From a virus: a stretch of DNA of 25,186 nt. The notes beneath the pieces are model-generated. The model searched no databases. It worked only from the letters and a program-made list of their open reading frames with translations, and was not told the origin of the DNA. The first letter of the stretch is position 1. The number at the start of each line of letters is the position of its first letter. Made by a program: the position numbers and the translations under genes. Of this stretch, positions 17,017 through 22,315 are shown piece by piece. Location: UHGV virus genome UHGV-1407433. The stretch is one strand, 5' to 3'.

Positions 17017-17219
17017 ACGTAAAACCCTGCTGGCCCCCGGCGTCGTGATGTGGTGCCAACCTGAGATTCAAGGTCAGCAATATATTTTTTGAGATCGCTG
17101 ACTGAAGTGGCTGTAAATTCCACTCTTCGACCGTCTTTCTGTACCGTCGCCACGCGCTTTCCCATCATCAGGTCATGTAACGCAGCGCGCGCGGCATCCA
17201 GTTCAGTCTGTGTTGCCAT
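17013..17219 (-). CDS. W: head completion (head-tail connector) protein W
   Basis: 68 aa. [40 protein letters not shown]...[10 protein letters not shown] is near-identical to lambda gpW as recalled. Confidence 0.95.
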
Positions 17220-19141
17220 TATTCATCTCCAGATAATGCCCGCGCGTAATCCGCCAGGGTCTTGTTATTGTTACGGCTGCCTTCTTCCTCCAGCAGGCTG
17301 GCCAGAAGTGAATCAAGATTTAGCTGCCAGCGGGATATGCTTATACGCAGCGCCGCCAGTGCATAAACAAAGCAATCGAGCGCCTCATTTCGTCGTTTTT
17401 TGCTGTCCCAGACGATCTTTTTCTTTCCGTCTACCCATTTTTCCACCTGCTCTTCAGCTGTTAGTTGTTGGGCCTCTGTTAGATCGTAGATTTCTGGGTT
17501 ATTCGGGAAATGAACCGCTCCCGCCAGCGGCTCGTCTCTTTGCGCCACCAGCGTGAAACGGTTATAAATCTGCTCTTTTGCGGTGTCTGTTCCTACCTCT
17601 GTGAGGTAAACACCATTCTTGTTACGCTTGCGTGGCATGTTCGCCACTGGCTTTCCATAAACCGACGCCCCCTTTATAGGGATCACACGAAACAGACCGT
17701 GTTTTTTTGAGCGGTTGTAGACGATGGTGGGATCAATGCCGCCAATATCCCAGCAAGTGCGGGATATAACCATTTCGAGACCGTTCTGGCGCTTATACGT
17801 CCTGTTGATCGCTTCATCAACTCGAGCGAGAGTCGACTCATCATCATGACGACCCATAATGATAATTTTGTCGATAAGCCAGCTTTCCTCTCCCGGCCCC
17901 CATCCCCAAACACGCATTTCGTAACGGTCAAGCTGGGAGTCAATACCCGCTGTCAGATATGCCACTCGCTCCGGCACAGACGCTTCAAAGTGCTCTTTTC
18001 GTTCCGCTAAAACTTCAGCATCGGGTCGTTCACCTATTTTCGGTTCCCACGTTTCGCCCAGGGTCGTGTTAACGAAAGTTTTTCGCTTACCCGTATCACC
18101 TTTTGTTTTTATCCAGTCCTTGACGATCTGCACCCAGGTTGTGAACGGGCTATATGCGGTCCAGATGTGGAATGTAACGCTGTCAGGAGGTTCAATTTCG
18201 GTACCGGATGAAGAAAACCAGTTAAGGCCGTCTCGTGTCCAGATACCTGTTTCATCACAAATATACCTGGCCTCCAGAAATTCCAGCTCCTGTTGTTTAA
18301 TCACACAGGCATTGTGTTCACAGAGGTAGTAAACGCTGGCAGGTTCTCCCGGAGACCATTTGAAGCCAAATGGTGTCTCTTTATCACCGAATTTCAGATA
18401 CTGCTCTTCCCCACAGTGTGGGCATGGAACATGGAACCGAAGAAAATGTTCAGACTCCTTAGCAGCTCTTTCTATCTGGCACGTACCTTTGACTTTCGGT
18501 GTAGATCCGCGAATGGATTTCGGCCATACAGAACCCTCAATACGCTTATCACCCAGAAAGGTGGGAGAACCTTCTTTCTCGATGTCATCATCGAAAGCGG
18601 CGAGCTCGTCGTAGCCAGCCACATCAACTGATTTTTCACGGTAGTTTTTTGCAGCCTTACCGCCCAGGCACCAGAAACCACGACCATTCGAGAAACGCTT
18701 CATGCTCAGCGTATTGTCCCGGTGTTTTTTACCGTACCAGGGAGCAAGCGCCAGCAACGTCGGAATATCACGAATGGTCGGTTCTACATGAGACTTCATG
18801 AAGTTTTCAGCATCACCGTCGGTTGGTAACCATATTAGGGAGTTACGCTGTTTATGTTGGATGAAATATGCGTAAACGCCGAGCAACATTTTTGAGTAGC
18901 CGACACGAGCCGATTTAACGACATTCACCTCGCGAATATAGTCATTACCCATCGCATTCATAATTGCACGCTGAAATGGCAGTGTTTCCCAGCGCCCTTC
19001 CTGGTAGGCAGACTCTTTCGGGAGATAATAATTCTCATCTGCCCATTCAACTGCTGTTTGCGGTTGCGGCCGGTACAGCGAACGTAACCCCGCCCGCGCA
19101 GAGTGCTGCAGCCCCTTAACCTGACTGTTCGATATATTCAC
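17219..19141 (-). CDS. A: terminase large subunit A
   Basis: 640 aa, lambda gpA-like (641 aa in lambda). Its start overlaps the Nu1 3' end, as in lambda. Confidence 0.97.
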
Positions 19142-19661
19142 TCAGCAACCCCGGTATCATTTCATCCAGCGCAGCTGCCTTGTTCATGGCCTTAATGATG
19201 TCCTTCTTGAGGAAATCAATATGTCGGTTCTCCAGCTCCGGGAAGCGCCGCTGAACCGACAGAGGTATTCCATCGAGAATGCTGGCGATTTCTCCGGCTA
19301 CCCGCGACAGCACGAACGTGCAGAATGCGGTCTCCACCACTTCAGCGGACTCTTTTGCATTTTTTAATTCCTGAGCGTCAGCCTGAGCTCGCGTAAGTCG
19401 GTGTCGCTCATATTCAATCGTGCCAGGTTGAAGATCGGACTCAGAAGCGATACGGAGATCTTCAACTTCCTTCCGCAACTTTTCATTTTCTATAGCTGCA
19501 TCGCGCGCACTGTACCATTCGATTGCAGCAGCAGATTCAAAGAGAACCTCATTACCTTTGCCACCACCGCGGACAACCGGCATACCTTGCTCCTGCCAGT
19601 TCTGAATCGTTCGGACGCTTACCCCGAAAATTTCGGATAAGCGTTTTTTGTTAACCTCCAT
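19116..19661 (-). CDS. Nu1: terminase small subunit Nu1
   Basis: 181 aa. MEVNKKRLSEIFGVSVRTIQNWQEQGMPVVRGGGKGNEVLF is near-identical to lambda gpNu1 (MEVNKKQLADIFGASIRTIQNWQEQGMPVLRGGGKGNEVLY, recalled). Confidence 0.97.
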   Translation of the reverse strand: MEVNKKRLSEIFGVSVRTIQNWQEQGMPVVRGGGKGNEVLFESAAAIEWYSARDAAIENEKLRKEVEDLRIASESDLQPGTIEYERHRLTRAQADAQELKNAKESAEVVETAFCTFVLSRVAGEIASILDGIPLSVQRRFPELENRHIDFLKKDIIKAMNKAAALDEMIPGLLSEYIEQSG

Positions 19662-19680
19662 GGCTTACTCCTGGCAAAAA

Positions 19681-19797
19681 ACAGAGAAAGGAAACAATCA
19701 ACGGTAAACTTCCGTTTTCCTTGCTCAGCATTTCCTTTCTGGAGAGAGGACGTTTTTAACAAAAACAATGAGTAAACAAGAAGAAGAACGGAAATGG
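19681..19797 (-). promoter_or_regulatory. cosB: terminase (Nu1) binding sites R3, R2 and R1 with an AT-rich bend region
   Basis: Minus-strand R3 is CCATTTCCGTTCTTCTTC (19797..19781). R2 is AGAAAGGAAATG (19740..19729, inverted). R1 is TTGTTTCCTTTCTCTGT (19697..19681). Each aligns with the lambda cosB R elements as recalled. An extra R-like GGAAAACGGAAGT lies at 19720..19708. Confidence 0.85.
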
Positions 19798-19836
19798 CAT
19801 AAACCAGAAAATTTTCATAAATAGCGAGAATCTGCG

Positions 19837-19848
19837 CGGACGCCGCCC
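19837..19848 (-). other. cosN: 12 nt cohesive-end sequence GGGCGGCGTCCG
   Basis: The minus strand reads GTTACG|GGGCGGCGTCCG|CGCAGATTCTCGCTATTTATGAAAATTTTCTGGTTT. Lambda reads GTTACG|GGGCGGCGACCT|CGCGGGTTTTCGCTATTTATGAAAATTTTCCGGTTT (recalled). The overhang differs from lambda at positions 9 and 12. Confidence 0.85.
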
Positions 19849-19871
19849 CGTAACAAGGCGGATCGCCGGAA

Positions 19872-19878
19872 AGGACCC
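19872..19878 (-). other. cosQ (GGGTCCT), 30 nt from the right-end nick as in lambda
   Basis: The minus strand reads GGGTCCTTTCCGGCGATCCGCCTTGTTACG immediately before cosN. Lambda ends GGGTCCTTTCCGGTGATCCGACAGGTTACG (recalled). Confidence 0.8.
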
Positions 19879-19903
19879 GCAAATGATAATGATTATCATT
19901 TGC
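19879..19903. promoter_or_regulatory. 25 bp perfect palindrome abutting cosQ, with a Fur-box-like sequence
   Basis: GCAAATGATAAT-G-ATTATCATTTGC has 12 bp arms. The minus strand reads GCAAATGATAATCATTATC, against the Fur consensus GATAATGATAATCATTATC (17 of 19 matches, with the 15-mer ATGATAATCATTATC exact). Confidence 0.5.
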
Positions 19904-19949
19904 TGGAATGCGACTTGATTCGCACCCATTTGGACGTCTAAACGTCCAT

Positions 19950-20417
19950 TCATCGCAACAGCGCTGACCATATCGTGCCACCTGGCCGAAGACTCTTCTT
20001 CAGTTCCTCGGACACAACATCTGAGATCGCTTTTACCATTTCAGGGGATAGCTTCACGCCGGTCTTAATTTCGGGACAGATGCCAACATTGATGGCATAG
20101 CCTTTTCGTGGGTCGTTCTCTATCCGGCCAAACTGAATATTTACAGAGCCACCAATATAACCACCAGCAGGAACACCAAAGCGCGTATTCACCAGGTGCT
20201 TAATGGCGAACTCCTGCCCTTCAGCGGTCAGGAAGGTGTAATAATTTTCCTTTTGATACTCCGTCGCGGTATGGCGTGTTTCAGCGAATCCCAGCTCTAG
20301 AAGCTCAGCAGCACCAGATTTGGCTGGCAGATCACCAGACTGAAGCGCGCCACGGAAAAACAGCGCATACAGAACATCCGTCGCCGCGCCGGACAACGTG
20401 ATAATTTTATGACCCAT
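19950..20417 (-). CDS. hypothetical protein, the last gene before the right cos end
   Basis: 155 aa. ATG 20417 follows AAGGAA. I recognise no family. A short hairpin (GGACGT-TTAG-ACGTCC) follows the stop. Confidence 0.7.
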   Translation of the reverse strand: MGHKIITLSGAATDVLYALFFRGALQSGDLPAKSGAAELLELGFAETRHTATEYQKENYYTFLTAEGQEFAIKHLVNTRFGVPAGGYIGGSVNIQFGRIENDPRKGYAINVGICPEIKTGVKLSPEMVKAISDVVSEELKKSLRPGGTIWSALLR

Positions 20418-21437: not shown

Positions 21438-22166
21438 TCAGGCCGCCGCATAGAGCAATTTCATCTGCCCTTTCACCGGGAATGCCGACATGCAACGCGC
21501 TTCGAAATCACGATAATCAGAGCACCCATTGGCAATGCTGGTAACGGCAATGATCTGTCGCTCAACCAATGTCAGCGCGTCAGGTTTAAGGTGCTGATGG
21601 ATTTTGTCTCCCGCAGCCAGCCGTCTTTTAACCTCTGCATATACTTCTGGTGGTAATACCTGGCCATATACCCACTTGGCACTGATCATCCCAAATAGTG
21701 CGGGGCGACGACCTGGTCGATGACGGGGCAGCCCTGACATTTTGAACATCGCAGAATAAAACGGATCGCTAAACCTCTTTTCCCATGGCTGAGATTTATC
21801 CAGAAGGAAAATAGCCTTTATTCTTTCATCGTCGATATGATGAACGGAACCCTGAATGATTGCGTCAATTTGCTCATCACACCAGATCTCAAAATCTACA
21901 GAAAGCCATCGAGCAAATCTGACCGCCAGCTTTGGGTGAAGCCATGTTCCGCCGCCACGGTCTTTGCGAGCGCGGCTGGTTTTTACATATGTGATATTCC
22001 CATATCTACTCTTTAACGCCTCGATGTAACGGACAGTCTCAGGAAGCCTAAGCCACTGAGCCGGCTCCTTGTTGAACTTGTCAGCTGCCGCAGTCGCGTC
22101 AAACCAGCCATCGTCAGAAAAACGCATGGGATGGCCTTCGAAATCAATCGGGATGATATTGGACAT
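21438..22166 (-). CDS. KilA-N domain / P63C domain protein (antirepressor-like DNA-binding protein)
   Basis: The likely start is MSNIIPIDFEG at 22166. The N-terminal ...WFDATAAADKFNKEPAQWLRLPETVRYIEAL...GGGTWLHPKLAVRFARWLSVDFEIWCDEQI fits the KilA-N pattern. The C-terminal half (FSDPFYSAMFKMSGLPRHRPGRRPALFGMISAKWVYGQVLPPEVYAEVKRR) resembles the P63C family as I recall it. Confidence 0.8.
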   Translation of the reverse strand: MSNIIPIDFEGHPMRFSDDGWFDATAAADKFNKEPAQWLRLPETVRYIEALKSRYGNITYVKTSRARKDRGGGTWLHPKLAVRFARWLSVDFEIWCDEQIDAIIQGSVHHIDDERIKAIFLLDKSQPWEKRFSDPFYSAMFKMSGLPRHRPGRRPALFGMISAKWVYGQVLPPEVYAEVKRRLAAGDKIHQHLKPDALTLVERQIIAVTSIANGCSDYRDFEARCMSAFPVKGQMKLLYAAA

Positions 22167-22315
22167 CGTATTTACCTTTTTGGTGATATGAGCCAGTTCT
22201 CGCAGACATGGACAGCCCAAGAGCGGCACGATGTAAGCCACCGTCCTGTCTCTGTCTCATATCCCGAAAAGCTCTTGGTTGATATGCGCACGAGAATGCG
22301 CGGTTTACTGCGGAC

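Follow-up and report, generated by a model that had tools for sequence, protein, structure and literature searches.

A predicted Fur box beside cosQ in a lambda-like phage segment and its conservation across lambdoid cos regions

Introduction

Most lambdoid cos regions carry, a few base pairs from cosQ, a dyad that is predicted to be a binding site for Fur, the iron sensor of the host. It is described here from a window of 25,186 nucleotides, the whole stretch of viral DNA that was analysed, in which it takes the form of a perfect 25-bp palindrome. The conservation of this cosQ-adjacent dyad, as read from the cos regions compared, argues for selection. Our best explanation, to which we give an even chance, is that the palindrome would be a high-affinity Fur operator, an accessory part of the conserved lambda-like cos module, which gates transcription. 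That transcriptional gating is also the role for which the site was selected is proposed with somewhat less confidence.

Two literatures appear to hold one half of this observation each, and appear unjoined where they are accessible. The transcription-factor field has the Fur sites of nohA and nohB, and the packaging field has cosQ. No paper joining Fur with Nu1 and cos, or with cosQ and cosN, was found in the accessible literature, outside of which lie most subscription-journal papers, including the key ones on cosQ. Previous work seems to have overlooked the near-universal, apparently selected association of the dyad with cosQ in lambdoid phages.

The palindrome and the cos region of the window

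The window represents a lambda-like prophage or phage segment, inverted with respect to the lambda map, and its tail and head genes, large terminase gene and Nu1 all run leftward. The small terminase subunit Nu1 (19116..19661, minus strand) belongs to the Pfam family PF07471, Phage_Nu1 (E=1.6e-95). The large terminase subunit, a gpA homologue, is a 640-aa open reading frame (17219..19141, minus strand), and by tblastn its homologues in related loci are 66-91% identical and lie immediately downstream of Nu1. Between Nu1 and cosN is the putative cosB region (19662..19836, minus strand), which contains R-like inverted repeats, AGAAAGGAAA and TTTCCTTTCT, and is assigned as such from where it lies and from its homology to lambda cosB. 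The cosN cohesive end, GGGCGGCGTCCG, is read as the reverse complement of 19837..19848 (minus strand), with the terminal base of the right end at 19849. It is of the N15 type and, when the ends of lambda and N15 are compared, differs from that of lambda at positions 9 and 12, a difference that has been described (PMC4669245). The packaging-termination subsite cosQ, GGGTCCT, was found by direct reading at 19872..19878 (minus strand), abutting the palindrome, and is identical across all of the retrieved cos regions. The N15-type cohesive end is combined with a cosQ, a spacer and a palindrome that most resemble those of phi80, which makes the cos block itself a mosaic.

The palindrome occupies 19879..19903 and has no strand of its own. 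On the plus strand it reads GCAAATGATAAT-G-ATTATCATTTGC, a 12-1-12 arrangement with no mismatch, and a repeat search extends it to 15-nt arms with 93% complementarity. By our arithmetic (25186/4^12), about 0.0015 palindromes of the 12-1-12 form are expected by chance in 25 kb. Counted from the terminal base of the right end, 19849, it covers bases 31-55 and directly abuts cosQ. Its core, which is likewise without a strand, is the 7-1-7 Fur motif TGATAAT-G-ATTATCA at 19884..19898, with 0 mismatches, and this core dyad lies 5 bp upstream of cosQ. Read on the Nu1-ward strand, the core is TGATAATCATTATCA, and the same 15-mer is found in lambda and at nohA of the Qin prophage. A sequence-only reading of the window had placed a perfect 25-bp palindrome beside cosQ, 31-55 bp from the right-end nick and between the last right-arm gene and Nu1; direct reading confirms the first two of these points, and the coordinates of the open reading frames the third.

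The last right-arm open reading frame (19950..20417, minus strand) lies on the far side of the palindrome from cos. It encodes 155 aa, corresponds to mEp237_062, is phi80-like and co-directional with Nu1, and no Pfam family was found for it. With most other lambdoid phages, homology ends in the interval that separates this frame from the palindrome.

Some further features of this part of the window may be recorded here. A 71-aa frame annotated as a hypothetical protein (19756..19971, minus strand; mEp237_063), whose translation contains QQMIIIIICG, crosses cosN, cosQ and the palindrome and would be severed in virion DNA. It is almost certainly an annotation artefact, and the palindrome is better annotated as a Fur operator than covered by a spurious reading frame. 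Between the lysis genes and cos, the window also encodes a 267-aa protein with KilA-N and P63C domains, which is Bro- or antirepressor-like (21438..22241, minus strand), together with several small open reading frames. The interval from the lysis genes to cos is about 2.6 kb in the window versus about 0.8 kb in mEp237, the closest sequenced phage, where the equivalent interval has no room for the KilA-N protein and the small frames.

Evidence for a probable Fur box

The 19-bp Fur consensus, GATAATGATAATCATTATC, is matched at 17 of 19 positions on the minus strand (19885..19903), just as the sequence-only reading had stated, and no match with three or fewer mismatches occurred in 100 shuffles. 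The 7-1-7 motif TGATAATNATTATCA is matched at 15 of 15 positions (19884..19898, in the form TGATAATnATTATCA), where 0.04 matches with two or fewer mismatches are expected by chance. So that the assessment did not depend on a consensus, a position weight matrix was built from individual sites. Its source was 14 strong, unrelated chromosomal Fur sites with coordinates from Table 4 of Chen et al. 2007 (PMC2189734), which were converted from U00096.2 to NC_000913.3, with all 14 in register at offset 0. The matrix was symmetrised and has 25 columns.

Centred at 19891, the window site scores 33.8 bits with this matrix, above every one of the 14 training sites, whose leave-one-out scores range from 15.3 to 29.4. 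The background in the window is -31 +/- 9.7, and the next-best position reaches 9.8. Such scoring was one of the checks proposed together with the earlier suggestion of a near-consensus Fur box, which is strongly supported by the perfect 7-1-7 motif, by the matrix score and by orthology to the published nohA and nohB sites. It is very probable that the window site binds Fur. Sequence identity and conservation are observed directly, and Fur binding is published for the orthologous K-12 sites; Fur occupancy of the window copy itself is inferred.

The canonical chromosomal Fur operators (sufA, yqjH, fhuF, gpmA and entC) have the 7-1-7 core in common with the window site. The sufA operator contains an identical TGATAATGATTATCA, and the likeness extends into the flanks, with a yqjH half-site that is identical to that of the window (GCAAATGATAAT) and a matching fhuF flank, GCAAATGATAAA. 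However, the canonical operators overlap the promoters of iron-related genes, whereas this site is found in the packaging region of a phage; no promoter is evident there in the window, and iron-related genes are absent from its surroundings.

Two other protein sites were considered and rejected. The IHF consensus, WATCAANNNNTTR, has no match anywhere in the window. A Zur box, judged by eye, shares the outer AAATG...CATTT with the palindrome but differs at three of seven core bases per half-site, where the match to Fur is perfect.

Orthologous sites in Escherichia coli K-12

The cryptic prophages DLP12 and Qin of K-12 both carry lambda-type cos sites, in which the dyad precedes GGGTCCT by 6 bp and the start codon of nohD or nohA, respectively, by 233 bp. 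The DLP12 dyad, TGATAATtATTATCA, is centred at NC_000913.3 580601 (U00096.2 579824), and the Qin dyad, TGATAATcATTATCA, at NC_000913.3 1636600 (U00096.2 1634624). These centres coincide exactly with the published coordinates of the nohB and nohA Fur sites. The Qin sequence is identical to the right end of lambda and has the 15-bp core in common with the window. The lambda sequence that the initial reading had given for the equivalent position, GATGATAATCATTATCAC, proved correct, as J02459 ends in GTAGATGATAATCATTATCACTTTACGGGTCCTTTCCGGTGATCCGACAGGTTACG.

The nohB and nohA Fur sites were scored at 25.3 and 22.3 bits and rank 3rd and 10th among genomic Fur clusters (PMC2189734). The former originated from the Fur titration assay, FURTA (Stojiljkovic 1994, cited in PMC2189734), and the latter from an in-vivo selection (Vassinova & Kozyrev 2000, cited in PMC2189734); the nohA site also gave a positive gel shift with 150 nM Fur (PMC2189734). 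In addition, the nohA dyad coincides with the summit, at 1634625, of an FNR ChIP-seq peak, the authors of which class nohA as Fur-repressed (Myers et al.). Fur binding to the nohA/nohB class of site is already established in the literature, and the window copy would, by its sequence, be a member of this class.

The window and K-12 sites represent the same element, TGATAAT-N-ATTATCA upstream of cosQ and about 230 bp before a Nu1 homologue, with several differences around it. The flanks GCAAA...TTTGC complete the perfect 25-bp palindrome in the window, whereas the flanks of the K-12 noh sites differ, and the window scores 33.8 with our matrix against 25.0 and 26.6 for the two K-12 sites. The DNA upstream is unrelated, being a co-directional 155-aa frame in the window and the divergent ynfO/ylcI with an FNR site in K-12, and the overlapping promoter of the DLP12 type is absent from the window. 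The K-12 literature treats the element as a site of the 'nohA promoter' and does not discuss cos.

The FNR site itself, TTGATGCAGATCAA, is found about 89 bp upstream of the Fur dyad in lambda, Qin and DLP12. Among the retrieved loci it occurs in the lambda right end (L003, about 2064-2077), in L001 (about 1509-1522) and in L002. It is absent from the window because homology to lambda, Qin and DLP12 starts only at the dyad. The FNR site probably serves the divergent DUF3950 gene, ynfO/ylcI, which is also encoded by lambda. The FNR site is supported by ChIP-chip and EMSA (Grainger 2007).

A host Fur box on a lambdoid phage has a known precedent in the Stx1-converting phages, where the stx1 box gives an iron input. 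Calderwood and Mekalanos are said to have found in 1987 that the stx1 promoter of these phages is Fur-regulated. The stx1 box differs from that of the window in its locus and context, since it lies in the promoter of a toxin moron in the late region, and its regulatory output has been demonstrated.

Conservation across cos regions

BLAST with the cos-proximal segment finds it in 4705 of the 5426 complete E. coli genomes, which together hold 10,324 cos places, as well as in 110 phage records. Most alignments begin at window positions 19903-19899, the outer edge of the palindrome, and the dyad therefore belongs to the cos block rather than to the right-arm gene. For a wider comparison, cos regions were retrieved independently of the dyad, with a search pattern that relied on cosQ alone, and the 96 distinct regions that also had cosN were kept. 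The dyad was scored as the best 7-1-7 match within 45 bp upstream of cosQ. It is present with three or fewer mismatches in 80 of the 96, perfectly so in 58, and the other 16 have at least six mismatches, which is the background level, giving a bimodal distribution. Only 0.6% of random 45-mers have three or fewer mismatches. An alignment of this kind had been proposed at the outset, and it shows the motif in lambda and its relatives.

Clustering of the DNA from -200 to -41 relative to cosQ yielded 20 unrelated upstream contexts, of which 17 have dyad-bearing members (one of these being mixed) and three have none. Among the 17 lineages, the distance from the dyad to GGGTCC is 4-8 bp. The dyad is also present in phi80 (GCAATTGATAATtATTATCATTTGC, 32.2 bits), in N15 (23.7 bits), and in Kosakonia and Pluralibacter prophages. 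The gp59 gene of N15 ends within the dyad: its TAA stop codon (L244, 718-720) is part of the left arm, CGATAAC, so that the Fur site and the end of the coding sequence overlap there.

In representatives of the 17 lineages, seven of the 14 dyad positions are invariant (2.0 bits), and the dyad averages about 1.6 bits. The flanks of the dyad remain A-rich and T-rich, and past -14 the information content drops to about zero. In the same lineages, the cosQ-cosN spacer reaches only 0.3-1.2 bits at its unconstrained positions. The centre base is T in 10 lineages and C in seven, as expected for the 'n' of a 7-1-7 site. The claim that the core is conserved and the flanks differ thus holds across 17 unrelated upstream contexts.

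These data bear on whether the dyad has simply been inherited, or marks a recombination junction only, so that Fur binding would be incidental and without a selected function for the phage. All copies do lie within a single inherited cos block, the dyad has disappeared from several lineages with no obvious loss of terminase genes, and a centre base limited to C and T could reflect neutral transitions from one ancestor. However, the spacer positions have been scrambled while half of the dyad positions have not changed, and the deviations that do occur stay within the Fur consensus, with the A/T flanks typical of chromosomal Fur sites retained. The dyad also persists in other genera and next to 17 upstream contexts that are unrelated to one another. 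Descent or recombination as the whole explanation is consequently considered unlikely.

The same alignment addresses whether the palindrome acts as a DNA cruciform or an RNA hairpin, as a structural element or terminator, instead of as a protein site. A window transcript would form an 11-bp hairpin, and the 101-nt region folds with z=-3.9 versus shuffles. Against this, each of the 22 departures of the arms from the half-site consensus breaks the palindrome and 0 of the 22 are compensatory, which points to a site for a dimeric protein and not to a hairpin in DNA or RNA. The palindrome is also imperfect in most lineages, and its A/U-rich stem is followed by GGGUCC with no U-tract, where a terminator scan makes no call. 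An intrinsic terminator or structured RNA was rejected on the stem composition, the missing U-tract and scan call, and the lack of compensatory changes, and a purely structural element of either kind is extremely unlikely. As a separate observation, the Nu1-ward RNA of 19860..19960 (minus strand) comprises three consecutive hairpins, namely GGACGU/ACGUCC, GGGUGCGA/UCGCAUUCC and the palindrome, with z=-3.9 and no U-tracts.

A scan of contigs with an 18-mer (17 specified bases) returned mostly chance matches in GC-rich genomes and lambda contaminants, with 14 true cos loci. Exact lambda right ends were seen in assemblies of unrelated organisms, among them Oceanobacillus, Leeuwenhoekiella, Neobacillus, Shewanella canadensis (on a contig of 48,542 bp), Raphidiopsis and Aeromicrobium (L135, L192, L197, L213, L227 and L235), and a phi80-type cos in one of Archangium (L237). 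These look like contamination of public genomes with laboratory phage DNA.

cos regions without the dyad and the relation to cosQ

The 16 cos regions that lack the dyad have an identical cosQ and cosN, and they include loci with a full Nu1 and TerL, both about 87% identical to those of the window. No relocated Fur site was found within -600..+400 of these regions. The dyad is therefore an accessory element and does not belong to the packaging signal. In one of the upstream contexts (cluster 1, e.g. L010, L026, L053 and L091), about 75 bp of unrelated DNA stands in place of the dyad. Within this replacement DNA, about 60 bp upstream of cosQ, is another palindrome, TGCGACCgtGGTCGCA, which is GC-rich and may take the place of the dyad as a protein site. 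Other dyad-less loci (L016, L056, L060 and L093; also L027, L071, L063 and L074) have lambda-type cosQ and cosN, in some cases with a cohesive end of variant sequence, GGGCGTCAGGCG; a large terminase gene is missing, and a Nu1 homologue is absent or divergent. These L016-type loci look like phage satellites, of the PICI-like kind.

The relation to cosQ, or the 'R4 region', of lambda is close. The dyad is immediately adjacent and co-inherited, and both elements are present in lambda, phi80 and N15. However, lambda cosQ, as reportedly defined by mutagenesis, is the 7-bp GGGTCCT, and the dyad is not a required part of cos, being absent from 16 of 96 cos variants with an identical cosQ and cosN. 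As a cos subsite, it would have to occur in every cos region and at a fixed spacing; it occurs in 80 of 96, at 4-8 bp. The 4-bp range of this spacing amounts to about half a helical turn, which excludes any fixed stereospecific contact.

A role in packaging has to be weighed nonetheless, with Fur or another dimer near cosQ forming a speed bump or architectural element. Such a complex would slow or position the terminase-prohead just before cosQ and cosN, aid termination and couple it to iron status. It is consistent with a dyad that keeps to within 4-8 bp upstream of cosQ whichever gene lies beyond, and with a mosaic homology boundary at the outer edge of the dyad, so that the dyad moves together with cos rather than with the gene of the right arm. 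One phi80 GenBank record annotates a whole 55 bp, the dyad included, as 'cosQ; aka R4 region'. Furthermore, Cue and Feiss are said to have found that recognition of cosQ depends on the extent of head filling, and thus plausibly on the rate of translocation. The dyad-less cos regions, including the satellite-like loci, speak against such a role, as does the variable spacing, and short spacing could arise from common descent alone. According to Wieczorek and Feiss in 2001, saturation mutagenesis reportedly limits cosQ to 7 bp only, which also counts against a larger site. An accessory packaging site is thus distinctly unlikely. The related suggestion, made from the letters of the window, that a packaging protein binds here and the likeness to a Fur box is incidental, is disfavoured by the same 16 regions, which include the loci with about 87% identical Nu1 and TerL.

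Transcription at the dyad and a proposed iron-dependent gate

The favoured role of the Fur operator would be exerted on transcription. When iron is plentiful, TGATAAT-N-ATTATCA and its AAA/TTT flanks would be covered by one or two Fe2+-Fur dimers, at a point that every right-arm RNA polymerase would cross en route to Nu1-A. The most likely outcome would be an iron-dependent gate on transcription entering Nu1-A. With a promoter overlapping the dyad, as in the DLP12/nohD type, Fur would occlude that promoter; with no overlapping promoter, as in the window, it would act as a roadblock or silencer. A roadblock, or an iron input on late read-through into the packaging genes, had been suggested in the sequence-only reading. 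Terminase transcription in a lysogen would then be low unless Fur were inactive or were overridden by Q-modified late transcription. We infer that such a gate would restrain untimely production of terminase in lysogens, in which the enzyme could cleave the cos of the prophage. The window site itself may affect transcription.

The promoters differ among lineages. The DLP12 type, which is the most abundant, has a sigma-70 promoter matching at 10 of 12 positions, GTGACA-16-TATCAT, that reads toward cos and nohD, and the dyad lies between its -35 and -10 elements, a classical Fur-repressed architecture. For nohA, a transcription start lies 85.5 bp from the FNR site centre at 1634713.5 (Grainger et al.), which places it at about 1634628, inside the dyad. 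A promoter scan found no consensus promoter at the dyad in the window, and lambda has none there. A Nu1-ward promoter conserved in all lineages is not supported, because 23% of shuffled flanks reach the mean promoter likeness observed over 17 lineages; none is seen in the window or lambda, and such a promoter is real only for the DLP12 type.

Several points count against gating. The activity of nohA/B promoter::lacZ fusions was reported as low, with no comparison of fur+ and fur- strains, no microarray support is cited for nohA or nohB by Chen et al. (PMC2189734), and the same authors state that Fur sites downstream of promoters repress only weakly. The dyad is a full 233 bp upstream of the nohA or nohD start codon. 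A gate that opens on iron starvation offers no obvious benefit to the phage, and a purely transcriptional role would not need the tight 4-8 bp spacing from cosQ.

The lack of a conserved promoter, together with the dispensability of the element, would also suit a Fur decoy. Phage genomes amplified in lytic growth would titrate Fur and de-repress the host Fur regulon (iron uptake, RyhB and alternative ribonucleotide reductase) to the benefit of the phage, with no need for a promoter or coupling to cos. The homologous nohB site was indeed discovered through multicopy Fur titration, and a window site that outscores all 14 chromosomal operators is what a competitor should be. However, there is a single site per genome, and copy number is high only late in infection, leaving little time for a transcriptional response. 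Fur is abundant, with thousands of molecules per cell, and a decoy leaves the adjacency to cosQ unexplained. The decoy is therefore very unlikely. Taken broadly, an iron-responsive accessory cos subsite that pauses terminase or acts as a Fur decoy to reprogramme host iron metabolism, and is not a transcriptional operator, is unlikely. If it were true, the host iron sensor would take a direct part in lambdoid DNA packaging or in host takeover, a connection that does not appear in the accessible packaging literature.

Conclusions

The cos site of lambda is among the best-studied DNA sites in biology, and in lambda, phi80 and N15, as in the majority of lambdoid prophages, its cosQ has one of the strongest known E. 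coli Fur boxes 5-6 bp away. The dyad explains the recurrent Fur/ChIP peak in prophage DNA. Its conservation argues for selection, and simple lambda genetics could thus put an iron input into terminase expression or packaging to a direct test.
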